Shown: piece after piece, positions 2,583 through 54,142 of the stretch
Position numbering within the stretch: the stretch's first letter is position 1
Layout: every line of letters begins with the position of its first letter
Assembly (NCBI GenBank): GCA_016185755.1
Contig: JACPMX010000016.1
Coordinates: 985 to 64,984 of the forward strand
DNA: 64,000 nucleotides
Reading direction: 5' to 3'
Origin: Candidatus Woesearchaeota archaeon
GTDB taxonomy: Archaea > Nanobdellota > Nanobdellia > Woesearchaeales > GW2011-AR4
Position numbers and translations under genes: made by a program
Notes under the pieces: model-generated
The model's database searches: none
What the model was told of the DNA's origin: nothing
Seen by the model: only the letters and a program-made list of their open reading frames with translations

Positions 2583-4301
2583 ATGACGGTAAAAATGAAA
2601 GACAAGCTGCAGAAAGTGATTCATCATCTGCCAAAAACTATGCAGAAAATAGCACTTTCCTATTATAATTCCATTGGATTCAGGAAAAGCCACGCATCAA
2701 GGACGCTGCAGCTGGAGTTCCCGATAAAAAGCAAAGACGGCTCGTTCCTATTCCACAAGCCGCTTTTCGGCAACGGGACAAGCCAGGGCTACTTTACCCA
2801 ATATTACAGGGAGCCGGAGATCCCGCAGGTATTCCTGACTGTAGAGGACAGGCTGTCATTAAAGACGGAAACCCTAAAAGGAAGACTATACCAAAAAAAT
2901 AAAAAAGCCAAAAAAAGCATAAAATCAGAATGTATATTGCCGGTTTCTTTGGTAAAAAAAGGATTTGAGGGAAGCTATATCGATAATGACGCCTTGATAC
3001 AGCTCAAAATCAACGGCAAAAAAACGGACCTGAAGGGGCTTGCAATAAACAGATTTCATTACCTGCCTGTACAAGGCAATTCAAAAATAGAATTGTCTTC
3101 CAGCCATGATTTCATTGCCGGTGACGAGCTGGGAAAAAGACAAGGCAAAAAGCACAAGAAGAAGCTTGTGCTGGTTTTATTTATAGACGGCTTTGCAGCG
3201 GAAATCCTTAAAAAATCCCATCTCAAGGACATGATGCCGCACACCTATAGGTTCTTCAGCAAAGGGATAATGTTCAACAACTGCTATTCATCCTCAAAAT
3301 GGACATTGCCAAATCTTGCTTCCATGTTTTCCGGAAAATATGCAAAAAAACACGGCATTTTCCACCCCAGCAAAGAGATAGAGCTGGGAAAGAATTACCC
3401 TGTCATCAGCAATTATTTCCAGGATGACGGCTACCTGACCCTTCATGTGGAGGGCGGATGGCGATTAACCCCCTCTTACGGCTACTGCAAGGGATTTGAC
3501 CGGACAATCTACAAGAAAAACATGCAGGAAAGCGAAATATTGGCAGCCCTTTTTGAGCATATAAGCGCATTTAAGGAAAGAGATAACTTTGCATGGCTCT
3601 CATTCATGGACCTGCACCATGACATGAACCTGCTTCCCGACATAGACATACAGGCGGAAACTCCGATAATGTACCATAGCTACGGCCCGTCAAAAATAAA
3701 ATCTGCGCTGATAAAAAGCTTTGACGAGAAAAAAACATACAAATACGCGAAAAAACTCACTAACATTGATTTTGACCTAAAAAGGATTTATGACTACCTA
3801 GAGGATAATTATAGCAATGACGAGATGCTGGTCGTGCTTGTTTCTGATCACGGCCAGGGATATATACAGGACTCAAAAACAACATTGTCCAAAACAAGGA
3901 CGCACGTCCCCCTAATGGTCAGGGGATGCAAAAATAAAAATACAGGCAGCGACGAGATAGTTTCCAACATGGACCTGCTTCCGATATTGCTGCACCTCTC
4001 GGGAATTCCCTATGACAATGGCAGTTTTGATGGAACTCTTCCAAAGATATTCGGCGGCGAGGGCAGGGAATACGCCATTACAGAGACTATCTACCCTGGA
4101 GAGCCCTACACAGCCGCGATTACCGATGCAGAAAATGAATTTTATTTTGAGACAGAAGCAAATGCCGATGACAGCGGCAATGTAAACGCAAATAAATTCA
4201 AAATTCAGATGATAAACTCTAAGGACGGAAATGATGCAACAGAAAAAAACCCGGAAAAAGCCATGGAGTACAAAAAAATAATTCTAAAGCACATAAGATA
4301 G
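2583..4301 (+). CDS. Type I phosphodiesterase / nucleotide pyrophosphatase family protein (alkaline phosphatase superfamily)
   Basis: LVLVLFIDGF...SSKWTLPNLASMFSGKYAKKHGIF matches the PF01663 core (DG..., PSVTFPNH..TG..P..HGI). A later VLVSDHGQGY matches the AP-superfamily DHG metal site. Confidence 0.6.
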   Translation: MTVKMKDKLQKVIHHLPKTMQKIALSYYNSIGFRKSHASRTLQLEFPIKSKDGSFLFHKPLFGNGTSQGYFTQYYREPEIPQVFLTVEDRLSLKTETLKGRLYQKNKKAKKSIKSECILPVSLVKKGFEGSYIDNDALIQLKINGKKTDLKGLAINRFHYLPVQGNSKIELSSSHDFIAGDELGKRQGKKHKKKLVLVLFIDGFAAEILKKSHLKDMMPHTYRFFSKGIMFNNCYSSSKWTLPNLASMFSGKYAKKHGIFHPSKEIELGKNYPVISNYFQDDGYLTLHVEGGWRLTPSYGYCKGFDRTIYKKNMQESEILAALFEHISAFKERDNFAWLSFMDLHHDMNLLPDIDIQAETPIMYHSYGPSKIKSALIKSFDEKKTYKYAKKLTNIDFDLKRIYDYLEDNYSNDEMLVVLVSDHGQGYIQDSKTTLSKTRTHVPLMVRGCKNKNTGSDEIVSNMDLLPILLHLSGIPYDNGSFDGTLPKIFGGEGREYAITETIYPGEPYTAAITDAENEFYFETEANADDSGNVNANKFKIQMINSKDGNDATEKNPEKAMEYKKIILKHIR

Positions 4302-4413: not shown

Positions 4414-5826
4414 ATGAGCAACAAATCCAGAGTCTTTGAGTTCCTGTACAGGAACAGCGGCAGCAGGTACAATATCAACCAGATCTCAAGGCTGACTGGC
4501 ATAAGCGTGGGAAGCGCCTTCAAGATCCTGAAAAATCTCGAAAAGGACAACTATGCAAACGCAGAGAAAAGAAACAATTCATTATTATACCAAATCAACC
4601 AAAACGGCCAAACAAAAGATGCTTTTGAGGATATTGAGGAGGAAAAAAGAAGCAAAAACCTGAAGAAAACAAAAATTATATGCACCCTGGGGAAATCTTC
4701 CGAAAGCGGGCCCCTGATTGGGAAATTAATTGAGAAGGGGATGGATGCTGCAAAGATAGACTCCTCCTTTTATGATGAAAAAGGCTCAGCAGGGATAATC
4801 AAAAAAATAAGGGAGATATCGGACCAGATACCAATAATTCTTGACATTTCAAAAAACAGCGAGATAAAGCCATGGGCAAGGGCTGCTATGGAGAACGACA
4901 TTGATTTTATCATAGTCTCAATAAAGAATGCAGATGATATAAGGAGAATAAACCGGCTCCTTGGCTACAGCGACATGAAGCAGGTCATCGGAGAAAAAAT
5001 CAAGGTGCTTGCGCGCCTGGTGGCAGAAAACCTGGGGAACCACAGGGAAATAATAGAAGAAGCTTATGGAGTTGTGGTGGACCGAGACTCGCTTGTAAAG
5101 GGCAAAAGATATGAGATGCTTCCTTTAATGCAGAAGATGATAATAGAAGAATGCAACAAGCAGGGCAAGCCCGCTATAATTTCCGGGCAGGTGCTAAAAT
5201 CAATGGCCGGCAAAAACTTCCCGGAGGCAACTGAAGTTTACAGCATAACCAACATGGTTCTTGACGGGGCTTCCTGCATAATGCTTTCCGGCGAAACCGG
5301 AGCGGGAAATTACCCGGAAGAATCCGTGGCTGCATTATCCAGGATTATCAAGGGGGTGGAGTCAGGCCTGTCAGAAAATTACATTGGGGCAATCCAGGAG
5401 GATTTTGTGCATTCCATAGGAAAAGCGGTATTAGAGGTTGAAAAAAACGCCAATATAGATGCCATACTAATCCTGACGTCTGGAGGCTATTCTGCAAGAA
5501 TGATATCCGGCAGAAGATTAAAATGCAAAGTCATAGCCGCGACATCCAGCAGGAAAATATCCAGGCAGCTCAATATATTGTGGGGAATAAGCCCGCTGCT
5601 TATCAAAGGCAACCTTGAGGACATATCCAGCCGGGAGAAAAAAGAGGCTGTAACCAATTCCCTGAAAAAAGGATTCATAAAAAAGAGCGACCGGATTGCC
5701 ATAGTAGCCTCAGTTTTTCACAGCAAGTCCAAGATAACAAATCTGCTGGAGATACACAAAGTTAACGAGTTTTTGGATTATCTAGATGGCAAGAGCAATG
5801 GCAGGCTAATCACAGAGGTGCGATAA
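4414..5826 (+). CDS. Winged-HTH domain fused to a pyruvate-kinase-like TIM barrel lacking the B (lid) domain; C-terminal PK-like domain present
   Basis: The N-terminal 60 aa resemble MarR/TrmB-like wHTH (ISRLTGISVGSAFKILKNLEKDNY). KIICTLG...ILDISKNSEIKP parallels PK KIVCTIGP...ILLDTKGPEIRT, and LDGASCIMLSGETGAGNYPEESV parallels PK DGTDAVMLSGETAKGKYP. RLNFSHG is replaced by KIDSSFY, and the sequence jumps from the TKGPEIR-equivalent straight to the IDFI block, so the lid is missing. Confidence 0.55.
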   Translation: MSNKSRVFEFLYRNSGSRYNINQISRLTGISVGSAFKILKNLEKDNYANAEKRNNSLLYQINQNGQTKDAFEDIEEEKRSKNLKKTKIICTLGKSSESGPLIGKLIEKGMDAAKIDSSFYDEKGSAGIIKKIREISDQIPIILDISKNSEIKPWARAAMENDIDFIIVSIKNADDIRRINRLLGYSDMKQVIGEKIKVLARLVAENLGNHREIIEEAYGVVVDRDSLVKGKRYEMLPLMQKMIIEECNKQGKPAIISGQVLKSMAGKNFPEATEVYSITNMVLDGASCIMLSGETGAGNYPEESVAALSRIIKGVESGLSENYIGAIQEDFVHSIGKAVLEVEKNANIDAILILTSGGYSARMISGRRLKCKVIAATSSRKISRQLNILWGISPLLIKGNLEDISSREKKEAVTNSLKKGFIKKSDRIAIVASVFHSKSKITNLLEIHKVNEFLDYLDGKSNGRLITEVR

Positions 5827-5827
5827 A

Positions 5828-6898
5828 ATGGCATATTTCCATGAAGCAGCGCTGATAGACAGCACAGATGACATGCAGTTCAAGATATACAGCAGCACGC
5901 ACCCGAAAGGATTTATCATAGCAAAGCCAAAATACATACCAAGCGAGCTGCTTAATCTGGCCGGACTGAAGAAAAGATTTCTTTTCAGCAGGTGCATGTA
6001 CCGCTTCAACCTTTTTAATGATAAGAAGATAGTGGGGAAAAACCTGGAAGAACTAAGGAAAAAATTCCCGGAATGCGTCTATGAATGCAGGAAGCACAAA
6101 AACTGGTTTCTTGGAGTCCCGGAAAAAAAAGTGAAAAAATTCTACGATACTAGAAAAGGACTGCAGGAACTGCTGAAAGTGCCTGTGGAGGACCTTGACA
6201 GCTACTTAAAGGCTGTGAGAAAAATGATAGACATCCTTGCCGAAGCCGGAATAAAATCAAAAGACCTCGGGATTAGCCATTCAACTTTGCTGGGGAACTA
6301 TACCCCGGGAAAATCCGACATAGACATATTGATTTTCGGCATGGGCAACGGCTGGAAAGCTGTTAAGCACCTGGAAAAATGCAAAGATCCTTCATTAAGC
6401 TGGAAATCCAAGGAAGGCTGGGCCAAATATTACAAAGACAGGGTTGTTTCCAAGGTTTACACTGAAAAGGAATATGTCGCGAACATGGTCAGGAAAAAAG
6501 ACGACGGATTTATTGACGGCAACGTATTCTCGCTCTTCTGCATTGAAAATGGGAATGAATCGTGGTATGACTGGGAAGAGGAGCACGAGCCTCTTGCAAC
6601 AGTGAAAATAAAAGCCAAAGTAAAGAATGCATATTATTCCATTGTAAGGCCCGGGTATTACGGGCTGGAAAACAGCAAAGTGCTCGAAGGCTATAAAGAT
6701 GTCCCTATAAAGCGCATTGTCACATGGGCAAGGCCCTTCAGCCTGCAGGCAAAAGAAAACGAGGAAATAGAAGCATGCGGCCTGCTTGAGAAAGTCAAGG
6801 CTGAAGACGGCGAGTTTTACCAGGTAGTGATAGGCTACTTTGATACATATACGACCGGCAGGGGTGAAAAAGAATACCTAAAAGCGTGTATAGACTAA
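5828..6898 (+). CDS. Pol-beta superfamily nucleotidyltransferase-fold protein (paralog A, intact hG[GS]...DhDh-like motif)
   Basis: LGISHSTLLGNYTPGKSDIDILIFG fits the minimal NTase / Cid1-like signature hG[GS]x9-13 DxD. The 356-aa protein has conserved N- and C-terminal extra domains (C-terminus YQVVIGYFDTY). Confidence 0.5.
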   Translation: MAYFHEAALIDSTDDMQFKIYSSTHPKGFIIAKPKYIPSELLNLAGLKKRFLFSRCMYRFNLFNDKKIVGKNLEELRKKFPECVYECRKHKNWFLGVPEKKVKKFYDTRKGLQELLKVPVEDLDSYLKAVRKMIDILAEAGIKSKDLGISHSTLLGNYTPGKSDIDILIFGMGNGWKAVKHLEKCKDPSLSWKSKEGWAKYYKDRVVSKVYTEKEYVANMVRKKDDGFIDGNVFSLFCIENGNESWYDWEEEHEPLATVKIKAKVKNAYYSIVRPGYYGLENSKVLEGYKDVPIKRIVTWARPFSLQAKENEEIEACGLLEKVKAEDGEFYQVVIGYFDTYTTGRGEKEYLKACID

Positions 6899-6899
6899 A

Positions 6900-7988
6900 A
6901 TGCACTTCTACGAATCATCAATAATAACAACAAAAGACGGGCTCCATTGCCAGGTTTACGGCAACGAGCATCCTGAAGGCAGGATACTAGTCAAGCCGAA
7001 GTACATACCGACTGACAGGATATCATGCGATTCCCTGCCTTACAGGTTCATCACCGGCCGGAAGATGAACAGGCTGAACCTCTGGATAGGCCAAAGCAAG
7101 CTTAAGAAATACTTTGATGATTTTGCCAAAGCATATCCCCGATATATATTCAAAAGCCCTGTCCATGAAAAAAGCCCCTTGTTTTTTGCCGTGCCCAAAG
7201 AATGCATTGAAAAAACTTATTCACCAAGGGAAGGGCTTGCAGAGCTCATGAGCATGCCTACAAGCCAGATGGACGACCATCTTAAGGCTGTCTTCGAGTT
7301 AATGTCCTTTCTGCTCACAAGCGGCCTTAAACTGGAGGATTTCGGCATTACCTACTCGACTTTGATGGGCCATTATTCCTCATACAAATCAGACATCAAC
7401 ATTGTTGTCTATGGAAAAAAGAAGTTCTGGCACCTGATGAAATTCCTGGAAAAAACCGGCAATAAGGAGCTGAGGTGGAAGACCTATGAGGAATGGGGGG
7501 AATTCTATAAGAAAAGGAACAGGCACATCATACACAAAAAGGAGAAATACATAGAAGACATGCACAGGAAGAGATCGGAAGGCTTCTTTAAAGGCATACT
7601 GTTTGTAATATTTGCAGTTGAAAACAAAGATGAAACATGGTTCAAATGGGGCGATGAAAAATATAAGAGAATAGGGGCAGCCAAATTTGAAGCTTTTGTA
7701 AAAGAAAATAAAGACTCAGTCGTAAGGCCCGGATGCTATATCATTTCCGATTCCAATTTCATAGGCGGGGATAGTTCATGCAGGGGAATACAAATAAGCA
7801 AAGCCGTCTTTTACTCAAGAGACTACTGCATGCTTGCATATCCGGGCGAGAAAATAGAGATAAGCGGGGTTGTCGAGGAAGTTGCCCGGAAATCGGGCGA
7901 AAAATATTACAGGGTAGTCGTTGGCTACTTTGACTCTTACCTAAGCGGAAGAAGAGATCAAGAATACATAAAAGTTACTGATGATTAA
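6900..7988 (+). CDS. Pol-beta nucleotidyltransferase-fold protein (paralog B; second carboxylate replaced, SDINIV)
   Basis: Colinear with 5828..6898 (KPKYIP, HLKAV, G-I-[ST]-x-STL-G-x-Y, C-terminal YRVVVGYFDSY), about 30-35% identity by eye. Motif is GITYSTLMGHYSSYKSDINIVVYG, with D to N at the second metal ligand. Separated from paralog A by 1 nt. Confidence 0.5.
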   Translation: MHFYESSIITTKDGLHCQVYGNEHPEGRILVKPKYIPTDRISCDSLPYRFITGRKMNRLNLWIGQSKLKKYFDDFAKAYPRYIFKSPVHEKSPLFFAVPKECIEKTYSPREGLAELMSMPTSQMDDHLKAVFELMSFLLTSGLKLEDFGITYSTLMGHYSSYKSDINIVVYGKKKFWHLMKFLEKTGNKELRWKTYEEWGEFYKKRNRHIIHKKEKYIEDMHRKRSEGFFKGILFVIFAVENKDETWFKWGDEKYKRIGAAKFEAFVKENKDSVVRPGCYIISDSNFIGGDSSCRGIQISKAVFYSRDYCMLAYPGEKIEISGVVEEVARKSGEKYYRVVVGYFDSYLSGRRDQEYIKVTDD

Positions 7989-8610
7989 GATGAGCAAAAG
8001 CGAGATTAAAAAACTGCTTGACGAAGATGCAAGCCTTAAGGATGGCTGCAATCTATGCAATGAATCTAAATTCACATCAGGATACGATACAGGATACGGA
8101 ATAATCGTCTACAAGAACGGAACTTTAAAGAACGGCTGGTTCGCAACCCTGTCACCAAAAACCGGCGGGGACCCGGAACACGATTTCACAGTCCAGCTGA
8201 TGCCATGCCTGCATTTGACACATTTCTCACAGATAGCCCCGCATAAGGGCATGATGGAGAATTATGGTGTTGCATTTTCAAGAATTTGCATGGCAATCTC
8301 AGCTGTTTTAATGCAGGAAGAAGGGCTGAAGGCCGGCACTGAAGAAAAAAAGCTGTCCATGCCTTTGGCGACATACGGAAAGAGCACAACATGGAAAAAA
8401 AAGAAGGAGCATCTTCACTTAAAGATTTTCCCGTTTCGCGGGAATATCGGGCAGCCGTATACTGTGGACAGCTCTTTCGGCAAAAAAGAGATTTTTATGG
8501 ACAGCAAGAAGACGGAATTCGTGAAAATGGCGCCTGTGAAGAAAAAGAAACTAAGCAGAGCCAGACTTGGCTACCTGGCAAAAAGGCTGATATCCCTGCT
8601 TGAAAGATAA
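7981..8610 (+). CDS. Atypical HIT-superfamily protein (histidine triad HLHLK variant with about 50-aa insertion)
   Basis: N-terminal CxxC (DGCNLCNE) and ...EHLHLKIFP in the position of the HIT motif H-phi-H-phi-H-phi-phi (third His replaced by Lys). Loosely like GalT/Ap4A-phosphorylase branch proteins. The start may be ATG 7981 (overlapping upstream stop) or ATG 7990. Confidence 0.4.
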   Translation: MIKMSKSEIKKLLDEDASLKDGCNLCNESKFTSGYDTGYGIIVYKNGTLKNGWFATLSPKTGGDPEHDFTVQLMPCLHLTHFSQIAPHKGMMENYGVAFSRICMAISAVLMQEEGLKAGTEEKKLSMPLATYGKSTTWKKKKEHLHLKIFPFRGNIGQPYTVDSSFGKKEIFMDSKKTEFVKMAPVKKKKLSRARLGYLAKRLISLLER

Positions 8611-8611
8611 T

Positions 8612-9490
8612 ATGGCAAAAAAAATAGACTTGCAGTCCCACACTACAGCTTCAGACGGCGAACTGGCTCCCGAAGAGCTGGTTGACCTGGCAATAGAAAA
8701 AGGGCTGAGCGCAATCGCAATAACAGACCACGATTCCGTGGCATCGCTGAAGGCTGCAATTGAGCATTCCAAAGGCAAAAATATTGAAATAGTTACAGGC
8801 GTAGAATTAAGCTGCGACGATCCCATACTAAATTACGACAAAATAGACGTGCTAGGCCTTTTTATAGACCCAAAAAACAAAAAGCTGATGGAATCAATTA
8901 AAAAAATAAACAGGAAAAGGGATGATAACAAAAAGAGGATAATAGGGAAATTAAAAAGCCTCGGCTACGAAATTGAGTATGAAGAAGTCAAAAAAACAGC
9001 CAAAGGGACTTTCGGCAGGCCCCATATTGCAAAATACCTGCTGAAAAAATACCCCTCGGAATTCAGCTCTGTTGCCGACGTTTTCGACAAGCTGATAGGC
9101 ACAGGCAAAAAAGCATTTGTGGGGACCCATGACAGGGTTTCCATCAAGGATGCCGTAAAGACAATAAAAGGCGCTGGCGGCATTTCCATACTGGCTCATC
9201 CGGGAATATACACCAAGGAAGATTCAATCAGGATTATTGATTATTTTATTGACAAAGGAGGCGAGGGAATTGAGACATATTATCCCTACCACATCATATG
9301 CCCGGAGCTTAATGTTGATAAAGAAGGCAATGAAAAAATAATAGGCTTCTACAAAAAAATCGCAAAATCAAAAAGAATACTTGAAAGCGGCGGCAACGAC
9401 CACCACGGCAATTACAGGTTTACTTTGGGAGCTGTTGAAATCCCATACGAAGTTTTGGAAAACCTTAGGAACAGGAAACCTGCCCTGTAG
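8612..9490 (+). CDS. PHP-domain metal-dependent phosphoesterase (TrpH/YciV-like)
   Basis: KIDLQSHTTASDGELAPEELV...AIAITDHDSV is the canonical PHP N-terminal His/Asp motif. Further His-rich motifs (ILAHPG, GGNDHHG) follow. Confidence 0.75.
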   Translation: MAKKIDLQSHTTASDGELAPEELVDLAIEKGLSAIAITDHDSVASLKAAIEHSKGKNIEIVTGVELSCDDPILNYDKIDVLGLFIDPKNKKLMESIKKINRKRDDNKKRIIGKLKSLGYEIEYEEVKKTAKGTFGRPHIAKYLLKKYPSEFSSVADVFDKLIGTGKKAFVGTHDRVSIKDAVKTIKGAGGISILAHPGIYTKEDSIRIIDYFIDKGGEGIETYYPYHIICPELNVDKEGNEKIIGFYKKIAKSKRILESGGNDHHGNYRFTLGAVEIPYEVLENLRNRKPAL

Positions 9491-9499
9491 GCAAACAAA

Positions 9500-10036
9500 A
9501 TGGCAAAATCAGCATGGACTATCTGGTTTGTAGGGCTGCACGGCTCTGGAAAATCAACCATATCAAAAAAAACAGCTGAGATTCTGAGGAAAAAAAACGT
9601 GCCTGTAGTAATTCTTGACGGCGATGAATTAAGGGAAGCAATATCATCCGACCTGGGCTACAGCATAGAAGACAGGGACGAGCACATGAAAAGGACAGCA
9701 GACTTGTGCCGCATAATTTCAGGAAACGGAATACTCTGCATAGCATGCGTTGCATCCCCAACTGAAAAATCCAGGGAATACGCCAAAAAAATGCTCGGAA
9801 AAATAATCATAGTCTATGCCAAATGCCCCCTTGAAGTATGCGAAAAAAGGGATGTCAAGGGGCATTACAGGAAGGCAAGGAACAAAGAAAAGGGATTTGA
9901 AGATTTTTTAGGAATATCCTTGCCTTTCGAAGAGCCAAAGAATGCAGATATAATCCTCAACACTGATAAGGAAAGCGCTGAAGATTCTGTGAGCAGGCTT
10001 CTTAAAAAATTGGCGGAAATGAAGGCAATTGAATGA
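9500..10036 (+). CDS. cysC: Adenylylsulfate (APS) kinase
   Basis: P-loop GLHGSGKST, LDGDELR (CysC LDGDNVR), and KCPLEVCEKRDVKGHYRKAR (CysC CPLEVCEARDPKGLYKKAR). 178 aa. Confidence 0.85.
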   Translation: MAKSAWTIWFVGLHGSGKSTISKKTAEILRKKNVPVVILDGDELREAISSDLGYSIEDRDEHMKRTADLCRIISGNGILCIACVASPTEKSREYAKKMLGKIIIVYAKCPLEVCEKRDVKGHYRKARNKEKGFEDFLGISLPFEEPKNADIILNTDKESAEDSVSRLLKKLAEMKAIE

Positions 10037-10075: not shown

Positions 10076-11068
10076 TTAAACTATCCTTGCTTTCCTTAAA
10101 ATATCCTTGATCTGGCTGATGTTTAGGTAACTGGCGTTTTTTGAATTGCTGTCCATATCAGCTTTCCGTTTTTTTGCCATATCAGAAACAGAAGGATGCC
10201 TTATTACATACATATTTCCCATGTCCTCTGAATAAACTGATTCCTCCTGCGTCATTAAAGACTCGTGCATCTTTTCGCCGAATCTGGCCCCGATAAACCT
10301 GAGCTTTATATCTTTAGGCTCATGGCCGTGCTTAGGGGCAAGCTCTTCTATCATGGCATGTGCAAGATCAATGACTTTCAATGCACTCATCTTGAGCACG
10401 AATATCTCCCCGCTCCTGGTGACTTCGGCGGCCTTCAAGACCAAGCTTATCGCATCAGACTTTGTCATGAAGTAACGGCTCATCTCTTTGTCAGTTATGG
10501 TCAACGGGCCCCCATTTTCAATCTGCTTCCTGAATATCGGTATGACAGAACCAACCGAATCCAGCACATTTCCGAACCTTACGCAGCAGAATTTAGTATC
10601 TGCATTGCTTATTGCAGTGTCTATTATCACCTTTTCGCTAAGCAGCTTTGTGGCCCCCATTGTATTGATTGGGTTAACCGCCTTGTCTGTGGAGATTCCT
10701 ATAAACTTTTCAACATTGTTGTCTATGGAAGCTGAAATCAAATTTTCAGTTCCAACGATATTGGTGCTTACAGCTTCAAAAGGGTTGTACTCGCATAAAG
10801 AAACATGCTTCAGGGCTGCAGCGTGGAATATGATATGAGCCCCCTTTACTGCCCTTTGGACCCTGTTCCTGTCCCTGATGTCACCTATAAGCAGCCTTAT
10901 CCTGTCAGTTGCCAGCTCCTGCCCCAGATGGAACAGGTTTGACTCATTATTGTCAAAAACCCTGATTTTCTCCGGATTATACTTCAGCAACTGCTTTACT
11001 ATCTCGCTGCCGATTGAGCCGCACCCGCCTGTCACCAGTATATCTTTTCCTTCAAAGACGCCTTTCAT
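10076..11068 (-). CDS. UDP-GlcNAc 4,6-dehydratase (CapD/PseB/LegB family polysaccharide biosynthesis protein)
   Basis: ILVTGGCGSIGSEI Rossmann motif, extended SDR. Gene order with DegT, acetyltransferase, NeuC, NeuB, NeuA. Confidence 0.85.
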   Translation of the reverse strand: MKGVFEGKDILVTGGCGSIGSEIVKQLLKYNPEKIRVFDNNESNLFHLGQELATDRIRLLIGDIRDRNRVQRAVKGAHIIFHAAALKHVSLCEYNPFEAVSTNIVGTENLISASIDNNVEKFIGISTDKAVNPINTMGATKLLSEKVIIDTAISNADTKFCCVRFGNVLDSVGSVIPIFRKQIENGGPLTITDKEMSRYFMTKSDAISLVLKAAEVTRSGEIFVLKMSALKVIDLAHAMIEELAPKHGHEPKDIKLRFIGARFGEKMHESLMTQEESVYSEDMGNMYVIRHPSVSDMAKKRKADMDSNSKNASYLNISQIKDILRKARIV

Positions 11069-12174
11069 TTTAACCTCCTTAGGATTTTTTTGAGAGAATT
11101 TACAACTGTATGCATATCTTTTTCCTTAATCTGCTCGTAAAAAGGCAAGATCATTATCGTCCTGCTCAGCTTTTCAGCCACCGGAAAATCACCTTCTTTG
11201 CAGCCAAGACTTTCCCTGTAAAACGGCTGCAGGTGAATGCAGGGATGAAAATACGCCTTGCTCTGTATCCCCATGGCGTTCAATTCGCTTATGGCCCTGT
11301 CCCTTATCTTTTCGCTTACCATTACAGGAAAAACAAACCATGAATGCTCATTGCCTTTTCTGATTTTTGGCAGCGTTACGCCATCGATTCCCTTTAATTC
11401 ATCAAGATAGGCATTTGCAAGCTCCTTTCTTTTTTTAATAAAGCCCGGCAATTTTTCAAGCTGCTCTACCCCAATGGCGGCATTTATCTCGTCCATCCTG
11501 TAATTATAGCCAATCCGCTGGTGGGTAAGCCACTGCATGTTATCCGATCTTCCCTGATTCCTGTAGCTTTTGCACAGTGCGCTTGTTTTTTCATAGTTTG
11601 TAACAATCATGCCTCCTTCAGCTGTTGTCATCTGCTTGTTTGGGTAGAATGCAAAAACTCCCGCATCCCCCATTGTTCCGGTATTTTTTCCCTTATAGGT
11701 AGCCAGTATGCTTTCGCATGCATCCTCTACGACTTTCAGCTTGTTTTCCCTTGCTGCCTTTAGTATAGGATCCATATCGCAGCTTTGGCCGAAGACATGC
11801 ACCGGCAAAATGAACCTTGTCTTTGCATTTATTTTTTCCTTTATCAAATCAGGATTAATGTTAAAAGTGTCCTCTTCCACATCGACAAAAACAGGCTTTG
11901 CATTCTCAAACAAGGCGCAGTTTGCAGAGGCAACAAAAGAAAAAGGAGTTGTTATCACCTCATCTCCGGGATTTATGCCCAAAGACTTTAATGCCAGGTG
12001 CAGCCCTGAAGTGCCTGAGTTGACAGCAATGGCATATTTTGACCCCATAAGCCTGGAGAATTTTTCCTCAAATTCTTCCAATTTAGGGCCTAAGCTCAAT
12101 ATTCCTGATTTCAGCACTTTTACTACTGAATTGATCTCTTCTTTTCCTATTGTCGGCCTTGATAATGGTATCAT
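11065..12174 (-). CDS. DegT/DnrJ/EryC1-type PLP-dependent sugar aminotransferase (PseC/LegC-like)
   Basis: Full-length match to the family: VNSGTSGLHLAL, ...PVHVFGQ..D.D, and the FYPNKQMTTAEGGMIVT lysine region. Confidence 0.85.
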   Translation of the reverse strand: MIPLSRPTIGKEEINSVVKVLKSGILSLGPKLEEFEEKFSRLMGSKYAIAVNSGTSGLHLALKSLGINPGDEVITTPFSFVASANCALFENAKPVFVDVEEDTFNINPDLIKEKINAKTRFILPVHVFGQSCDMDPILKAARENKLKVVEDACESILATYKGKNTGTMGDAGVFAFYPNKQMTTAEGGMIVTNYEKTSALCKSYRNQGRSDNMQWLTHQRIGYNYRMDEINAAIGVEQLEKLPGFIKKRKELANAYLDELKGIDGVTLPKIRKGNEHSWFVFPVMVSEKIRDRAISELNAMGIQSKAYFHPCIHLQPFYRESLGCKEGDFPVAEKLSRTIMILPFYEQIKEKDMHTVVNSLKKILRRLK

Positions 12175-12184
12175 TTTAGTGTTT

Positions 12185-12589
12185 TCAATTTTTTATTTTC
12201 TTCACAACTTTAGCCGGGATGCCATAAGCAACAACATTATCCTGGATGTCCCTGTTGACAAACGAAAAAGCCCCTATAACTGAATTTTTCCCTATCGAAA
12301 CCCCGGGCATTATGACAGAATGGCTGCCTATTTTACAGTTTTCCTTTAATGTCACCATTCCTTTCTTGCCGTCTATTGTGCTTATGCTGTATATCGAGCA
12401 GTGGCTTCCTACCTGCACACCATCCTGTATTTCCACGCCGTGCTTCGCGTTTATGTATGTAAATGCGCCTATATCAGTTTTCCTGCCCAGTTTCAGGCCG
12501 CCTTTATTCCGGACCAGCCAGCTGTATTTTGTCATTTTTCCTTCCCTGATTTCCGGGAATTTCCAGCCCTTAAACCTTTCTTCTTCCAT
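12185..12589 (-). CDS. Hexapeptide-repeat (left-handed beta-helix) N-acetyltransferase (PseH/LegH-like)
   Basis: Repeating [LIV]G.... hexads (IGSHSVIMPGVSIGKNSVIGAFSFV). Start set at the internal Met to avoid overlap with the upstream gene, so the start is uncertain. Confidence 0.65.
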   Translation of the reverse strand: MEEERFKGWKFPEIREGKMTKYSWLVRNKGGLKLGRKTDIGAFTYINAKHGVEIQDGVQVGSHCSIYSISTIDGKKGMVTLKENCKIGSHSVIMPGVSIGKNSVIGAFSFVNRDIQDNVVAYGIPAKVVKKIKN

Positions 12590-12593
12590 TTTT

Positions 12594-13733
12594 CTAGTAT
12601 GATATCCTCTTCTGCAGGAGCTTCTCATCAATTTTTATGCTTTTTAGGCATTCAAGCACCTTCTGGAAAGTATCTCCGCTGCCGAAAGGATTCTTCAGGC
12701 TTTTTATTCTCTTCTGAAAACCTTTTGATAAAGCGAGCTTTATGGATTTTTTAATATCTTCCTTCTGATATCCGCAGTCAATGACATTTCCTGCCCTTTC
12801 CCTTCCTTTTTGCCTTGAGCCTATATTGACGGCAGGAAGCCTGAAATATGGGGCCTCTATTATTGCGCTGCTGGAGTTCCCAACAATTACATCAGCAAAG
12901 CCCATAATGCCTATGAATTCTACGTAATCCAGATTTTTCCTTATCCTGAAGCCCGGATTTGAGGCAAATTCGCCAATGGCCTTTATAATTCCACTGTTTC
13001 CGGGGTCTGCATTAGGATAAACAACAAGGCACTGGGCGTCAATTTCAGCTACCGCCTTTAGCGTGTTGAGTATTTGGCTGTATGAGCTGTTTTCCTCGAG
13101 CGTTACAGGATGCTGCAAAACCAGCACAAGAGGCTTTTCATTGCTTAATTCAAATTTTTTGTATAATTCTCTTTTTGAAATCTTTTTCATCTCCCTTATG
13201 TTGCTTACGGAAGGGGAACCGACAACACGTATCCTAAAAGAATCTTCCCCCATTTTTTTTATCCTTTCTGCAGATTTTTCCGTGGCGCAGAAATGCAGAT
13301 GGCTCAGCTTTGTTATTGCATGCCTTGCCGCCTCGTCAACGGTCGAGGTCACTTCGCCGCCATGGAAATGGGCAACAGGTATGGAAAGGTAAGAGCCTGC
13401 AATAGCCCCTCCTAAGGCCTCTATCCTGTCGCCTATGACAAAAATAAAGTCCGGCTTTATCTCGCTAAGTTTTTTTGTCAATTTTTCTATAAAATTACCC
13501 AAAAAAAACAGCATAGATGCCTTGTTGTCTTTCTCGAAAACAGAATTTATCTCTACTGTGCCCAATCCGCTTTTTTTGACCTCATCTATGCTATGGCCGA
13601 ATTTTTCCATCATATGCATGCCTGTTGCAATTACAGTTATCTTAAAGCCTTTAGCCTTATCCAATTTTTTCAGCAGTCCCGACATTATCCCGAAATCCGC
13701 CCTTGTTCCCGATATATAAACAATTTTTTTCAT
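12594..13733 (-). CDS. neuC: UDP-N-acetylglucosamine 2-epimerase, hydrolysing type (NeuC/LegG-like)
   Basis: MKKIVYISGTRADFGIM...HGGE..S..DE..RHAITKLSHLHF is characteristic of the NeuC/WecB epimerase fold. Sits immediately upstream of NeuB. Confidence 0.75.
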   Translation of the reverse strand: MKKIVYISGTRADFGIMSGLLKKLDKAKGFKITVIATGMHMMEKFGHSIDEVKKSGLGTVEINSVFEKDNKASMLFFLGNFIEKLTKKLSEIKPDFIFVIGDRIEALGGAIAGSYLSIPVAHFHGGEVTSTVDEAARHAITKLSHLHFCATEKSAERIKKMGEDSFRIRVVGSPSVSNIREMKKISKRELYKKFELSNEKPLVLVLQHPVTLEENSSYSQILNTLKAVAEIDAQCLVVYPNADPGNSGIIKAIGEFASNPGFRIRKNLDYVEFIGIMGFADVIVGNSSSAIIEAPYFRLPAVNIGSRQKGRERAGNVIDCGYQKEDIKKSIKLALSKGFQKRIKSLKNPFGSGDTFQKVLECLKSIKIDEKLLQKRISY

Positions 13734-14800
13734 TCTATCTTTTCCAAACTTAATAATTCATCTTTCATAATTTGGGCATTCGCTTTTTTCCCTATTATCG
13801 AGTAGATATCTTTAGGCTTCAATCCAATTCCAGGCCTTTTTATTGCAAGATTTCCAAAGCTTAGTTTCTCGCCTTTTGCTATGTTCCTTGCAGCTACTAT
13901 GCTTTTTCTTGCTACTTTGGCATTTTCTATTTCGCTTTTTGTTGGCTTTTTTTCAGCACTCCCCAAAACTCCCCCATCAAGCTTGATTTTCTCATAATCC
14001 TTGTTTTTTATTGCTGTTATCATTTCTTTTAATTCATCAGGCTCCAAAGAAGCTTTGTGGTCAGGCCCTTCCATGCCCCTGTCAAGGGTAAAATGCTTCT
14101 CTATCAGGACCGCGCCTAGCTTAACAGCCATCTGCGGAACATCAATCCCGAGCGTGTGGTCAGAATAGCCCACCAGGCTATCTAATTCCTTCTGCATGGT
14201 CTGCATGGCCCTTAAGTTCACTTCATTTTTTGGGCATGGGTAACTGGTTGTGCAATGCAGCATGATAACTTCCCTGTTGCCTGCTTCATATATTTCACTC
14301 AATGCCTCTTTTACCTCTTCCAAGGTAGACATCCCTGTCCCCAAAATCATGGGCTTGAGCTTTTTTGCAGCCTTTTTCAAAAAAGGGATATTGGTAAGGT
14401 CTCCGGAGCCTATTTTGAATGCAGGCATCATCTTGTCCAAAAAATCTATTGCATCATTTGTATGGGGGGTCGATAAAAAGATAATATCTTTCTCATCACA
14501 ATATTTTTTTAATGCTTTGAAATTGTTGTAATCCAATTCTAATCTCTTCAGCATCTGCAACTGAGTTTCACCTCCTCCAATATTCTCTTCCTGGTATTTC
14601 GCCATTGGAGTTTTTTCAGCAATCAAATCCTCTGATTTAAAAGTCTGGAACTTTACAGCATCAGCTCCCGCATCTTTTGCTGCATCCACAAGCTTTTTTG
14701 CCAATTCCAAAGAGCCGTTGTGGTTCACTCCCGCTTCCGCTATTATGAAGCAAGGCTCATTTTCCCCGATTCCTCTGCCCCCTATGTTTATCCGCATCAT
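13730..14800 (-). CDS. neuB: N-acylneuraminate (nonulosonic acid) synthase, NeuB/LegI/PseI family, with C-terminal SAF domain
   Basis: CFIIAEAGVNHNGSLELAKKLVDAAKDAGADAVKFQTF is the NeuB signature. The antifreeze-like C-terminus is present. Confidence 0.85.
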   Translation of the reverse strand: MMRINIGGRGIGENEPCFIIAEAGVNHNGSLELAKKLVDAAKDAGADAVKFQTFKSEDLIAEKTPMAKYQEENIGGGETQLQMLKRLELDYNNFKALKKYCDEKDIIFLSTPHTNDAIDFLDKMMPAFKIGSGDLTNIPFLKKAAKKLKPMILGTGMSTLEEVKEALSEIYEAGNREVIMLHCTTSYPCPKNEVNLRAMQTMQKELDSLVGYSDHTLGIDVPQMAVKLGAVLIEKHFTLDRGMEGPDHKASLEPDELKEMITAIKNKDYEKIKLDGGVLGSAEKKPTKSEIENAKVARKSIVAARNIAKGEKLSFGNLAIKRPGIGLKPKDIYSIIGKKANAQIMKDELLSLEKIE

Positions 14801-15510
14801 TTGTGCCGCTGAATTATATTCCTGTTTATTTCCATCAGCTTGGGATTCTCAAGAAGAAGTTTAATGATGCTTTTCAGCGGAAAGATATTTTTATCGCCTA
14901 AGCTGTCAAAAATCCTCCTTACAAGCTCCAAATCCTCGCTGAAATCCACGGTCAGCCTTATTTCCGGATGCCTTAACTCTTCTTCAACCTCCAGGTCTAT
15001 CTTTTTCAGGCTGGACTCCCTTTCAAATAGGTTCCCCCATATTTCCGTGTCTTTCTCTTTTTTGGTTTCTATAATTTTCTTAAGAGCATCAATCTTGATT
15101 CCATAGGAAAAAGCGCCCAGCGGAAGATTTTTGCAGGTTATAAAATCAGCATCGGATTCCCTGAAACTGGTGATTATCCTGTCAATATAAGCAGGATCAA
15201 CCAGGGGGTTGTCTGCAGTAACGCTGACTATATGGCTTGCCTTGTATTTTTTTGCTGCATTGAACAGCCTGTCGAGCACGTCATCCTCGCTGCCCCTGAA
15301 CCATTTTATGCCCTCTTTCTCGGCAACATCTATCAATACATCATCCTGGGGATTTGTTGATGTGCAGAGGATTATCCCATCGGCATTTTTTGACAGCTTC
15401 AGCCTGTCTATCTGGTGCTCTATCATAGGCCTTCCTTTTATGTACCTCAGCACTTTTAACGGGAGCCTTTCCGATTTCATCCTTACTGTTATGGTTATTG
15501 CCGCTTTCAT
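14797..15510 (-). CDS. neuA: CMP-nonulosonic acid synthetase (acylneuraminate cytidylyltransferase, NeuA/LegF/PseF)
   Basis: ITVRMKSERLPLKVL...PMIEHQIDRL matches the CMP-sugar cytidylyltransferase N-terminus (GT-A-like nucleotidyltransferase). Confidence 0.8.
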   Translation of the reverse strand: MKAAITITVRMKSERLPLKVLRYIKGRPMIEHQIDRLKLSKNADGIILCTSTNPQDDVLIDVAEKEGIKWFRGSEDDVLDRLFNAAKKYKASHIVSVTADNPLVDPAYIDRIITSFRESDADFITCKNLPLGAFSYGIKIDALKKIIETKKEKDTEIWGNLFERESSLKKIDLEVEEELRHPEIRLTVDFSEDLELVRRIFDSLGDKNIFPLKSIIKLLLENPKLMEINRNIIQRHK

Positions 15511-16547
15511 TTTTCCACATTCCTCCAGCTTATAAGCGAATATTTCTTAATAGGCTCTTTTGCCTTTTTGCCGATTAAGCTAAAGAATTCCCTCTGCTCT
15601 ATGGTATTTTCCTTTTTTGTTCTCCTGAAAGCCAGGTCTTTTTTTCCTATGGAGCTTCCTTTTTTTATGTCACCTGCAGCGACTATTGTAAACTTCATCG
15701 GACCTTTCCTCGCGTATATGTTCTCGTAATCGCTGATTTCAAATGAGCCGTCGCCTTTGGCCTTGTTTAGAATACCCATCTTGCCCCTTATTTCCCTCAG
15801 GCTTTCTGCAGACACCGCAGCGTCGTAATCAGTTCTTTTTTTCCCTGCTTCCAGGGCAACGTGCTTTTCAATTATATTCGGACCTGCCATGAATCCGGCC
15901 AGTGTCATCAGTTCATTGTTTTTGTCGTCCCAGGCAGTATGGTCTGCGTATCCCACAGGAAGACCGAATTTTTCCTTGATTTTTTGCATCCTTCTGAAAT
16001 TTATATATTCATATCTCGTGGGGTAGTTCTGGAAACCGTGCATGAGAAGAATGTCTTTCCTGTCCAGGAATTTAACAGCGAATTCTATGTCTTTGATACC
16101 TGAGCCGCCAATGCCAAGAATTATCGGAACCTTTATGCCTTTCACCCTTTCAAGCATTTCTATGTTGTTCAAGGCCACAGCATGAATTTCAACAGCATCG
16201 ACCAAATCAACATTCTCCTTTACAAAATCAATAGAGTACAGGTCATCAGCCAAGACTATATTGTCAAAACCGGAGCTTTTTGCCTTTTCCAATATCATGA
16301 TCCACTGGCTTTTTGAAAACATGGATTTTTTGATTATGCTGTAAGCGGGATGGTCTTTTGTGAAATAAGAGTCTATGTCGATCATTATGTGGAATTTTAC
16401 CCCATCGCAGCTTTTTTTTGATGCAAGACTGTGGATCAGCCTGTTCATGTAGGAAAAGTTCCCCTCGTGTATATATGCGGTTTCCCCAATTATGTAAGGA
16501 CAGTTCTCATCTTCCATTGCTTCCTTGAACCTGCTTTTTTTTGCCAT
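15507..16547 (-). CDS. Second, divergent NeuB-family (sialic-acid-synthase-like) paralog with SAF domain
   Basis: PYIIGETAYIHEG... parallels NeuB IIAEAGVNHNG. HGFQNYPT and a C-terminal SAF-like segment are present. It is more divergent than 13730..14800. Confidence 0.55.
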   Translation of the reverse strand: MAKKSRFKEAMEDENCPYIIGETAYIHEGNFSYMNRLIHSLASKKSCDGVKFHIMIDIDSYFTKDHPAYSIIKKSMFSKSQWIMILEKAKSSGFDNIVLADDLYSIDFVKENVDLVDAVEIHAVALNNIEMLERVKGIKVPIILGIGGSGIKDIEFAVKFLDRKDILLMHGFQNYPTRYEYINFRRMQKIKEKFGLPVGYADHTAWDDKNNELMTLAGFMAGPNIIEKHVALEAGKKRTDYDAAVSAESLREIRGKMGILNKAKGDGSFEISDYENIYARKGPMKFTIVAAGDIKKGSSIGKKDLAFRRTKKENTIEQREFFSLIGKKAKEPIKKYSLISWRNVEK

Positions 16548-17237: not shown

Positions 17238-18008
17238 ATGGAGAAAATAAGGATAATAGCCAGGCTGGATGTCAAGGGCCCCAATGTCATCAAAGGGGTG
17301 AATCTCGAAGCCTTGAGGGTGGTTGGAAAGCCGGAAAAGATGGCTGAAGATTATTACAGGCAGGGGGCAGACGAGCTGATATACATAGACATTGTTGCAA
17401 GCCTTTATGGGAGGCAAAATCTCCTTAACATAGTGAACCTGACATCTGACAAGATATTCATACCATTCACTGTTGGCGGCGGGGTAAGGACTCTTGATGA
17501 CATAAGCCTGTTCTTAAAAGCAGGAGCAGACAAGGTGGCAATAAATACTGCAATAACCAAAAACCCGGATTTAATAACGAAAGCTTCAAGGATGTTCGGG
17601 TCGCAATGCATCGTTGCTTCTATAGAGGCAAAAAAGGCACCAGAAAATAAATGGGAGGCATACACTGAAAATGGAAGGGAAAAAACAGGCCTTGATGTGG
17701 TAAAATGGGCAAAGAAAGTGGAAAAACTCGGGGCAGGAGAGATACTCCTGACGTCCATAGACAAAGAAGGCACCAAAAAAGGATTTGATATCGAGCTCAT
17801 AAAGCAGGTTTCTGAAGCTGTTTCTGTCCCGTTGATCGTATGCGGCGGCGCAGGCAATGCCGGCCACATCGTTGAATGCATTGAAAGCGGAAACATCGAT
17901 GCAGTGGCAGTTTCCTCAATTCTTCATTACGGGACATCGACTATCGGCGAGATTAAGAATCACCTTGCCAAGAGTGGAATTAGCGTGAGAAAAAATGCAA
18001 AATTATGA
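17238..18008 (+). CDS. HisF-like cyclase subunit (imidazole glycerol phosphate synthase family) of the glycan-cluster WbuZ type
   Basis: RIIARLDVKG...VVGKPEKMAEDYYRQGADELIYIDI...GGGVRTLDD is the HisF (beta/alpha)8 signature. It is located in a sugar cluster next to the HisH-like gene and the PP-loop amidotransferase, not in a his operon. Confidence 0.8.
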   Translation: MEKIRIIARLDVKGPNVIKGVNLEALRVVGKPEKMAEDYYRQGADELIYIDIVASLYGRQNLLNIVNLTSDKIFIPFTVGGGVRTLDDISLFLKAGADKVAINTAITKNPDLITKASRMFGSQCIVASIEAKKAPENKWEAYTENGREKTGLDVVKWAKKVEKLGAGEILLTSIDKEGTKKGFDIELIKQVSEAVSVPLIVCGGAGNAGHIVECIESGNIDAVAVSSILHYGTSTIGEIKNHLAKSGISVRKNAKL

Positions 18009-18657
18009 AATTCCGGATGTAAGCATAATTGATTACGGAATAAACAATCTCAAGAGTGTAAACATTGCATTCCAAAGCATAGGAAGAACCGCGAAAATAA
18101 TTGACGCTCCCGAGGACGTACAATCGGCAAAATGCCTTGTATTGCCGGGGATAGGCGCATTTCACAGCGCCATGGAAAACCTCAGGAAAAAATCCCTGAC
18201 AGAGCCAATCAGGCAAAAAGTCAAAGACGGAACCCCAATTTTAGGGATATGCCTGGGGATGCAGCTGCTGTTCTCTGAAAGCGAGGAGTTCGGGCTGCAC
18301 AAGGGGCTCGGCCTGGTTCCGGGAAGAGTCATACCATTCAAATCGCCAAAGGAAATTAATATAAAGGGCTATAAAGTACCGCATATAGGCTGGAGCGAGC
18401 TGATATTCCAAAAAAACAGTGTCAAAAATACGCTGCTTGAGAACCTGCCGGAACAATGCGAGGTTTATTTTGTGCATTCATACTTCCCCAAGGCTGATGA
18501 TGCAGGCACTGTATTGGCGACTGCCAAATACGGCGGCCAGGAATTTTGCGCAATAGTCAAAAAAGGCAATATCACGGGAACCCAGTTTCACCCTGAGAAA
18601 AGCGGGGAAATAGGGCTGAGCATGCTAAGGACATTTTGCAATCAAAATTGCAGATGA
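17995..18657 (+). CDS. HisH-like class-I glutamine amidotransferase subunit (WbuY type)
   Basis: IIDYGINNLKSV...VLPGIGAF...GICLGMQLL (Cys nucleophile)...HSY...FHPEKS. Overlaps the upstream gene by 14 nt. Confidence 0.8.
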   Translation: MQNYEIPDVSIIDYGINNLKSVNIAFQSIGRTAKIIDAPEDVQSAKCLVLPGIGAFHSAMENLRKKSLTEPIRQKVKDGTPILGICLGMQLLFSESEEFGLHKGLGLVPGRVIPFKSPKEINIKGYKVPHIGWSELIFQKNSVKNTLLENLPEQCEVYFVHSYFPKADDAGTVLATAKYGGQEFCAIVKKGNITGTQFHPEKSGEIGLSMLRTFCNQNCR

Positions 18658-50836: not shown

Positions 50837-50988
50837 ATACTAGCTTTAACAGGAAATTTTTGGGGGTGTAAAATTTGCTTTTAAGAATAGGTGTTAGCCT
50901 GTTTTATTGTACGTAAAGTTCTTTTTTCCAAATAGCATATTCTCCGTCAGAAAAACTTTTATAATTTCTGAAACTTTGAGGTGATTTT

Positions 50989-54141: not shown

Positions 54142-54142
54142 T

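Follow-up and report, generated by a model that had tools for sequence, protein, structure and literature searches.

How does an archaeon with a gene for adenosine 5'-phosphosulfate (APS) kinase obtain APS when no ATP sulfurylase is encoded nearby? The question is raised by a 64-kb stretch of a Candidatus Woesearchaeota (DPANN) contig, which was analysed as a whole and is called the window here; all coordinates follow its numbering. The initial annotation of this DNA had tentatively ascribed the missing step to a HIT protein encoded upstream of the APS kinase gene cysC. Our analysis points instead to that HIT-like gene together with two paralogous genes directly upstream of it, X1 and X2, which had been overlooked. 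Judging from sequence comparisons, it is fairly probable that this X1-X2-HIT trio is a non-homologous, multi-subunit replacement for ATP sulfurylase (Sat) within a module for 3'-phosphoadenosine 5'-phosphosulfate (PAPS) synthesis and sulfation. The genes form a single plus-strand operon of six open reading frames (ORFs; 4414-10036), with overlaps or spacers of 1-10 nucleotides (nt) between them; the stop of X2 overlaps the start of the HIT-like gene.

4414-5826, plus strand: winged-helix and pyruvate-kinase-like (PK) protein, 470 amino acids (aa); accessory first gene of the operon
5828-6898, plus strand: X1, 356 aa, without family assignment; N-terminal beta domain, Pol-beta-type nucleotidyltransferase core and C-terminal OB fold, as predicted
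6900-7988, plus strand: X2, 362 aa, paralogue of X1; SDIN motif at nt 7344-7400
7981-8610, plus strand, probable start 7990: HIT-like protein, 209 aa; CxxC at nt 8047-8058, HLHLK at nt 8410-8424
8600-9490, plus strand, probable ATG start 8612: PHP-domain phosphoesterase, 296 aa; PF02811, E = 5e-14; clade PHPa
9500-10036, plus strand: APS kinase (CysC, APSK), 178 aa; TIGR00455 and PF01583; P-loop at nt 9533-9559

Only the last three of these genes had been covered by the initial annotation. They are indeed tightly packed plus-strand ORFs, and they are not chance ORFs, since HIT-like orthologues with 46-70% identity are found in 42 species-level genome loci. The inseparable upstream genes X1 and X2 (5828-7988), however, had been cut off. 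We found the last gene to encode a genuine APS kinase, as had been assumed. Its product passes the equivalog cut-off of TIGR00455 (162.7 bits versus 138.7), matches PF01583 (E = 4e-42) and has genuine APS kinases as its best PDB matches (5cb6, E = 9e-35). It also carries all characteristic motifs, namely the P-loop GLHGSGKST, LDGDELR, VASP, KGHYRKAR and FLGISLPFEEP, whose residues we take to have the roles that they have in APS kinase structures. Pfam searches of all ORFs of at least 150 aa in the window revealed no ATP-sulfurylase, PAPS_reduct/CysD, CysN or sulfotransferase domain, which agrees with the earlier statement that a Sat- or CysDN-type sulfurylase is missing from this stretch. X1, X2 and the HIT-like protein gave no match to Sat, CysD or CysN in Pfam or NCBIfam.

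In order to see what occupies the place of the sulfurylase elsewhere, we inspected loci that carry close relatives of the window APSK on contigs not already known to contain the trio. The gene orders are given below, with the exchanged block in brackets and with CDP-OH-like denoting a CDP-alcohol-phosphotransferase-like membrane protein.

L054 (Woesearchaeota, 234-kb contig) and L055 (marine): NTP_transferase-epimerase-GT4-PK-[PUA_2+ATP-sulfurylase]-APSK-(PHP)-CDP-OH-like-flippase
L056: NTP_transferase-epimerase-GT4-PK-[X1-X2-HIT-HAD-like-PHP]-APSK-PHP-CDP-OH-like-flippase
Window: GT4-PK-[X1-X2-HIT-PHP]-APSK

The loci L056, L057 and L058, which were read directly, are of the trio type. The flanks are orthologous between Sat-type and trio-type loci, with identities of 63-71% for APSK, 59-63% for GT4, 56-63% for the flippase and 47-57% for PK. 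The APSK of the window shares 63-65% identity with the APSKs encoded after canonical Sat in L054 and L055, and the sulfurylase slot is immediately preceded by a PK orthologue (47-57%) both in these two Sat-type loci and in the trio-type loci L056, L012, L014 and L018. No match to the hidden Markov models (HMMs) of the X or HIT-like families was found in L054 and L055. Conversely, the Sat motif GRDHAG, which detects both Sat genes as a positive control, occurs in 0 of the 42 trio loci, and Sat and the trio were never seen together in the stretches read. This exchange of one slot between orthologous flanks argues for non-orthologous gene displacement, in which X1-X2-HIT, along with PHP, stands in for ATP sulfurylase. 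By analogy with the orthologues that directly follow a canonical ATP sulfurylase (63-71% identity), the substrate of the APSK would be APS. The initial annotation had proposed a PAPS and sulfation module without a canonical sulfurylase in cis and with a non-canonical replacement; the slot exchange and the sulfotransferases neighbouring the trio in related loci lend support to that proposal.

We additionally examined how constant this association is. ORFs were called in 42 species-representative genomes with a HIT-like gene and labelled with HMMs built for the analysis, and co-occurrence was counted in the 26 loci whose flanks extend for 5 kb or more in either direction. Carriers with informative names are Woesearchaeota, Nanoarchaeota/Nanoarchaeia and Iainarchaeum; several others bear general labels, "uncultured Methanosarcinales archaeon" among them. 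The X genes flank the HIT-like gene in all 26 loci, and the HIT-like gene was never found without X1 and X2. A phosphatase accompanies the trio in 25 of the 26 loci: a PHP gene follows the HIT-like gene in 20, a SpoT-like HD domain protein replaces PHP in four, and in one (L017) an IMPase/CysQ-like domain fused to APSK takes its place. APSK lies at most 6 kb from the HIT-like gene in 13 loci. A gene for a PF01663 phosphodiesterase-like (PDE) protein lies within the same distance in 10, mostly directly upstream of X1, and the two were never both present within 6 kb. In seven loci, sulfotransferases scoring above the Pfam cut-offs (PF03567, 37.5 bits; PF13469, 52.7 bits; PF00685, 28.6-32.1 bits) are encoded at most 10 kb from the HIT-like gene. 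According to a review, no PF03567 sulfotransferase from Woesearchaeota or Pacearchaeota has been characterised, and other archaea do possess sulfated N-glycans (PMC11625862). The trio loci are always surface-glycan loci, with methyltransferases and a kinase-like gene as common neighbours of the cassette.

Several components are also found as fusions: X2-HIT (P0243, L017, L023, L049), HD-X1 (P0195, P0222), PDE-X1 (L043), PDE-HD-X1 (L040) and PHPa-APSK (L021). The X2-HIT, HD-X1, PDE-HD-X1, PHP-APSK and IMPase/CysQ-like-APSK fusions indicate that all parts act in one pathway. On the side of the kinase, we considered the 47 closest APSK clusters encoded on contigs of at least 5 kb; at least 28 of them lie on contigs that match, in size, contigs with X1 or HIT-like matches. 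No fusion of APSK to Sat, X or HIT-like proteins was found among the best 120 APSK homologues.

X1 and X2 share 35% identity (BLASTP, E = 8e-86). In Pfam, X1 has a weak match to the PF01909 motif (E = 0.007, 17.2 bits), which stays under the 21-bit cut-off. Its AlphaFold2 model is of high confidence (pLDDT 93.4, pTM 0.90), and a Foldseek search of the PDB with this model gave no match under E = 0.02. The core weakly matches the CCA-adding enzyme of A. fulgidus and ANT(2'')-Ia, both of the Pol-beta type (Foldseek, E = 0.14-0.35), and the C-terminal OB fold weakly matches SSB, RPA and the N-terminal/anticodon domain of LysRS. Closer inspection of the primary sequence showed the Pol-beta signature hG[GS] x9-13 Dh[DE]h followed by a downstream acidic residue, GISHSTLLGNYTPGKSDID...FCIE. 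The catalytic triad G-S...D164-I-D166...E240 (nt 6269-6325 and 6545-6547) is intact and invariant in the X1 family, whose orthologues are 50-84% identical, and it is the sole intact canonical nucleotidyl-transfer triad in the trio. In X2, an asparagine (N167 of SDIN) replaces the second metal-binding aspartate (D166 of X1), and this is conserved to at least 95% in 28 X2 sequences. Such an exchange of Asp for Asn is typical of a degenerate partner, and X2 probably acts as a partner subunit that is either altered or without catalytic activity.

The third member of the trio belongs to a small and isolated family of 46 clusters among 1.84 billion representatives. Its recognisable motifs are CNLC (aa 23-26), MPxxH78L and H144-L-H146-L-K148 (aa 144-148, nt 8410-8424). 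Across members with 22-68% identity, W53, P75, H78, G96, K134, H144, H146, D163 and P185 are invariant, and C23, C26 and K148 are nearly so. Even relatives with only 22-40% identity keep the motif as H-x-H-x-[K/R], with arginine at the third position in one member. The H-phi-H-phi-H/Q pattern of HIT proteins is therefore not found, the first two histidines being invariant and the third position being Lys or Arg. None of the 21 members scanned matched a Pfam family of the HIT clan (HIT, DcpS_C, GalP_UDP, ATP_transf) at E <= 10, a weak match to DUF2806, on which the literature offered no clue, being the only one recovered. A profile search of the PDB with the HIT-like protein returned nothing, and comparison by hhalign with three HIT sequences yielded a probability of 1.3%. 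On the other hand, 15 of the 17 top Foldseek PDB matches of the AlphaFold2 model are HIT-superfamily proteins (DcpS, HinT and others), all with E >= 0.046, TM scores of 0.23-0.45 and a model pLDDT of 66. The model has the order strand/strand/strand/long helix/strand/strand, a strand/long-helix order which matches that of Hint. From the motifs and these weak structural matches, a HIT-like fold is probable. The earlier assignment to the HIT superfamily is not confirmed as it stood: the HLHLK and CNLC motifs and the weak top structural matches speak for it, and no profile match or significant score does. A 50-aa insertion, which had been described as well, is not present as a single element; the additional length consists of about 20 aa at the N-terminus, about 55 aa at the C-terminus and a longer loop at aa 110-128.

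Three further observations concern the HIT-like family. Two HIT-like paralogues, one of them sometimes on the opposite strand, lie side by side in L008 (12147-12803 and 12898-13491), in L044, L045 and L046, and in L011; the distant members with 22-40% identity may represent this second paralogue. In P0271, a protein of 1816 aa, eight separate stretches match the N-terminal CxxC region of the family profile (positions 28-71). The distant member P0253 is encoded on a contig of 1.4 kb with little context.

The PHP phosphoesterase had been recognised correctly (PF02811, E = 5e-14), and its proposed role as a phosphatase of 3'-phosphoadenosine 5'-phosphate (pAp) is only partly borne out. The protein belongs to a COG0613-type group that includes the pAp phosphatase Cv1693 and RNase AM of E. 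coli, and its PDB matches are 9etk, 7ug9 (E. coli RNase AM), 2yb1 (Cv1693) and 3e0f. Its best NCBIfam model is the 3',5'-bisphosphate phosphatase NF041577, with 151.4 bits versus a cut-off of 400, and the 145 bits for RNase RNM likewise stay under the cut-off. According to the residue roles described for RNase AM and Cv1693 (PMC9410882), the equivalents of most metal ligands (H15, D20, H45, E72, H198), of the 5'-phosphate pocket (R107, R141) and of the adenine-stacking F161 are kept in the DPANN PHP proteins, and in the window copy H13 is changed to Q, H83 to D, R110 to N and R201 to I. This pattern would be compatible with pAp as substrate, a 5'-phosphoadenosine nucleotide from which the 3'-phosphate can be cleaved. 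The canonical pAp phosphatase is CysQ. The PHP-APSK fusion in L021 and the IMPase/CysQ-like-APSK fusion in the place of PHP in L017 support the idea of a pAp phosphatase and make it plausible. However, two clades of PHP proteins can be distinguished: PHPb follows cysC and is also present in the Sat-type locus L054, whereas PHPa, the clade of the window protein, always comes after the HIT-like gene and is missing from Sat-type loci. PHPa thus travels with the trio and not with cysC, and PHP- or HD-type phosphatases accompany the trio also where no cysC is nearby. It may therefore be that PHPa serves the activation step itself rather than simple pAp recycling.

Building on the observed gene content, conservation, fusions and positional exchange, we propose the following mechanism, in which the APS-forming reaction, the complex and the site of APS formation are our inference. 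The operon (4414-10036) would make and recycle activated sulfate (PAPS) for the sulfation of a surface glycan. ATP and sulfate would be converted to APS and pyrophosphate by a DPANN-specific complex of X1, X2 and the HIT-like protein that is unrelated to Sat or CysDN. X1 would be the nucleotidyltransferase, with its OB fold and intact catalytic triad, X2 a degenerate scaffolding or regulatory partner, and the HIT-like subunit would contribute a CxxC/His/His site and His146 as a putative nucleophile. Two potentially competent nucleotidyl-transfer sites, the triad of X1 and the histidine pair of the HIT-like protein, are present in proteins that always occur together and are sometimes fused. The chemistry appears feasible, given that the nucleotidyltransferase triad of X1 is retained, as are the His-x-His pair and the candidate zinc ligands of the HIT-like protein. 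Our preferred guess, which is speculation, is an adenylyl relay in which X1 activates ATP, AMP is placed on His146 and sulfate attacks, Lys148 being positioned for the anion; either X1 or the HIT-like protein may also be the catalyst by itself. APSK would then convert APS to PAPS, the action of APSK and phosphatase would pull the unfavourable equilibrium, and the PHP enzyme would strip the 3'-phosphate from the pAp left by sulfotransfer.

In line with the proposal of the initial annotation, the HIT-like protein alone could be an ADP- or ATP-sulfurylase; it would then form a His-AMP intermediate like the HIT enzymes of the GalT branch, and X1 and X2 would have an unrelated job. This version now appears distinctly unlikely to us. 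Apa1/Apa2 and the APS:phosphate adenylyltransferase of Thiobacillus are HIT/GalT-branch enzymes that act on APS and offer a precedent. The conserved H-x-H with Lys or Arg two residues on, the candidate CxxC/His/His zinc site kept among members with 22-68% identity and the absence of the HIT-like gene from L054 and L055 would all fit such an enzyme. Yet X1 and X2 vanish from these Sat-type loci along with the HIT-like gene, which is never found without them and is fused to X2 in several lineages, and X1, with identities that reach 84% versus 70% for the HIT-like protein, is better conserved and has an intact nucleotidyltransferase site. Nothing singles out the HIT-like subunit as the catalyst. 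Its obligate coupling to X1 and X2, its occasional fusion to X2 and the intact triad of X1 suggest that the unit which substitutes for Sat is X1-X2-HIT(-PHP). A canonical sulfurylase elsewhere in the genome, with X1-X2-HIT-PHP catalysing another nucleotide-dependent step of glycan or lipid modification, would account for the presence of APSK within 6 kb in just 13 of the 26 loci as compared to a phosphatase in 25, for the fusion of PF01663 phosphodiesterase-like genes to X1 and for the occurrence of sat in some DPANN genomes. We nevertheless consider this unlikely in view of the exact exchange with Sat in otherwise orthologous operons, the mutual exclusion of Sat and the trio in every stretch read, and the PHP-APSK and CysQ-like-APSK fusions, which tie the phosphatase slot of the trio to the PAPS cycle.

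Two further readings change the pathway altogether. The APSK homologue could act on another nucleotide-diphospho compound, X1 and X2 being nucleotidyltransferases for a PAPS-like donor that carries no sulfate. For this there is the precedent of Cj1415, a CysC homologue in a capsule locus without sat, where Cj1415-Cj1418 make the 3'-phosphate of CDP-phosphoramidate (PMC11800397). The methyltransferases and the kinase-like gene near the cassette, and the CDP-alcohol-phosphotransferase-like protein that follows it in many loci, would be in keeping with such a donor. We regard this reading as improbable; in L054 and L055, a genuine ATP sulfurylase gene is followed by an APSK of this very clade (63-71% identity), the window APSK exceeds the TIGR00455 equivalog cut-off, and sulfotransferases above the Pfam cut-offs occur in the loci. 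A cassette for the processing or repair of RNA ends, composed of an OB-fold nucleotidyltransferase, an aprataxin/DcpS-like HIT protein, an RNase-AM-like PHP exonuclease and a P-loop kinase, would draw on the resemblance of the X1 OB fold to SSB, RPA and the LysRS anticodon domain and of its core to the CCA-adding enzyme, on DcpS among the best HIT matches, and on a PHP protein that is equally close to RNase AM and Cv1693. All these structural matches are weak (E > 0.02), and the constant location in glycan loci, the sulfotransferases, the true APSK and the exchange with Sat make this reading highly improbable.

Replacement of the sulfurylase by X1-X2-HIT is accordingly the explanation that we favour, and several observations weigh against it. 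Half of the trio loci lack APSK within 6 kb, and ten have a PF01663 gene instead, which a simple replacement of Sat leaves unexplained. The block that swaps with Sat includes PHPa, which may hence be part of the activation step. In the X1 model, the OB fold comes closest to nucleic-acid-binding OB folds, and the assignment of the HIT fold is weak. The window itself contains no recognisable sulfotransferase (Pfam, ORFs of at least 150 aa). Sat is present in the DPANN loci L054 and L055, which are the only two Sat-type loci in the comparison and were read 10 kb to either side, and sat has been reported in some DPANN genomes (PMC7906910; PMC8091004). A more far-reaching version makes X1-X2-HIT a third independent class of sulfate-activating enzymes, with a relay from the X1 site through His146-AMP to sulfate and a PHP or HD phosphatase that pulls the reaction, and with PAPS or APS being used in many loci by the CDP-OH-like or the PF01663 protein as a new sulfuryl transferase. 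This we hold to be doubtful, if conceivable.

The PF01663 proteins are encoded in L033 (6468-7856), L040 (5443-8760), L043 (6449-8911) and eight other loci, and a threonine was aligned by eye to the nucleophile of NPP. The divergent CDP-OH-like membrane protein of about 280 aa, which may be a user of PAPS, is encoded after APSK or PHP in loci of either type that lack a recognisable sulfotransferase. Copies are present in L014, L015, L018, L020, L022, L025, L029, L053, L054 (11471-12289), L055 (10658-11494) and L056 (11450-12286), and none is present in the window. Its consensus is D..NG..AR..G...E and not DxxDGxxAR..G...D...D. A HAD-like protein of about 272 aa is encoded between the HIT-like gene and PHP in L018 (10635-11450), L043 (10549-11370), L056 (8268-9086) and L051.

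The PK-like protein at the head of the operon matches PF00224 (E = 3e-37) and PF02887 (E = 1e-21), has a weak N-terminal MarR/HTH_24 match and stays below every equivalog cut-off for pyruvate kinase; regeneration of ATP for PAPS synthesis, or regulation, is a possible role. Copies were located in the window (4414-5826), L054 (7179-8858), L055 (7145-8863) and L056 (4037-5464), those of the Sat-type loci being about 90 aa longer. Directly upstream of the operon, a protein of 572 aa of the sulfatase family (alkaline-phosphatase superfamily; 2583-4301, domain aa 195-475) is encoded, and similar genes flank the cassette in many loci. We rejected these "sulfatase" neighbours as evidence for sulfate; the copy in L013 (5522-6847), inspected by eye, has S-x-P-x-V and not the formylglycine motif C/S-x-P-x-R, so that the name does no more than denote the family.

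Downstream, the operon meets a convergent nonulosonic-acid cluster on the minus strand (PseB/DegT/NeuC/NeuB-like; 10076-16547) that holds two NeuB paralogues. This cluster is adjoined by HisF-like and HisH-like genes and a 418-aa ORF with the PP-loop motif SGGKDS and no Pfam match (17238-19892), a set which we take to resemble the WbuX/Y/Z-type amidotransferase set for acetamidino sugars. The PP-loop ORF (18636-19892) was considered as a CysD and rejected, given that Pfam assigns it to no family (no PAPS_reduct) and that it lies beside the HisF/HisH-like genes. Further along, a protein of 388 aa (32572-33738) weakly matches the glucuronyl C5-epimerase C-terminal domain, pectate lyase and squalene-hopene cyclase (alpha/alpha barrel); with the UDP-glucose dehydrogenase gene nearby (35593-36885), the glycan may contain an iduronate-type sugar. 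The region 50000-64000 has a G+C content of 29-36% versus about 43% elsewhere and encodes large Asn/Thr-rich proteins, taken as secreted. Among these is a subtilase of 1441 aa (59148-63473), the C-terminal half of which is closely similar to a protein of 586 aa (57117-58877).

Overall, the pathway suggested by this operon is of a known kind, and the enzymes of its activation step appear to be new. Our literature search found no published description of the X1, X2 or HIT-like families or of a third kind of sulfurylase. To our knowledge, Sat and CysDN are the only known solutions to sulfate activation. If our explanation is true, the trio would be a third, non-homologous solution to the step with which all sulfation and the assimilatory reduction of sulfate begin, and would deserve a place in textbooks. 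It would also give a function to three protein families that have none, account for the "orphan" cysC genes of DPANN archaea, which are currently surveyed as partial sulfate-reduction pathways, and imply that sulfated surface glycans are common in these episymbiotic archaea.

Among known systems, Sat is the one whose place the trio takes. In syntenic DPANN loci it fills the same slot, with the PK-like gene before it and cysC after it, and the net reaction of the trio would presumably be the same and likewise feed APSK. Sat is homo-oligomeric (PUA_2 and PF01747), whereas the trio consists of three polypeptides, with a Pol-beta nucleotidyltransferase plus OB fold occurring twice and a HIT-like protein, none of which is related to Sat in sequence or fold. 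The trio also travels with a PHP or HD phosphatase. CysDN resembles the proposed complex in being a multi-subunit system for sulfate activation with a catalytic and an accessory subunit, but its subunits are a PP-loop ATP pyrophosphatase (CysD) and a GTPase (CysN), and neither fold is found in the trio; the sole PP-loop ORF of the window is the one without Pfam assignment beside the HisF/HisH-like genes.

GalT-branch HIT enzymes (GalT, the Ap4A phosphorylase/ADP-sulfurylase Apa1/Apa2 and APS:phosphate adenylyltransferase) share with the HIT-like protein the H-x-H core, the second histidine being the likely nucleophile, and adenylyl-sulfate chemistry is the proposed likeness to the trio. The arrangement of CxxC and two histidines in the HIT-like protein also resembles the zinc site of GalT. 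The differences lie in the third motif position, which is Gln or His in that branch and Lys or Arg here, in the lack of a HIT-clan Pfam match and in the obligate coupling to X1 and X2. For the PHP protein, Cv1693 and RNase AM (YciV), a 3',5'-bisphosphate nucleotidase and a 5'-3' exoribonuclease, are the best sequence matches, with the 5'-phosphate pocket and the adenine-stacking Phe conserved. The window protein differs from them in that it is far under the equivalog cut-offs, has two metal ligands changed (His to Gln and His to Asp), has lost the equivalent of Arg201 and comes from the trio-linked rather than the cysC-linked clade. Finally, the C. jejuni system Cj1415-Cj1418, which makes 3'-phospho-CDP-phosphoramidate (PMC11800397), likewise has its CysC homologue encoded among surface-glycan genes where sat is missing, and yields a PAPS-like donor. 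It differs from the operon described here, in which the kinase clade also follows genuine Sat, related loci encode sulfotransferases and the nucleotidyltransferase has a different fold.

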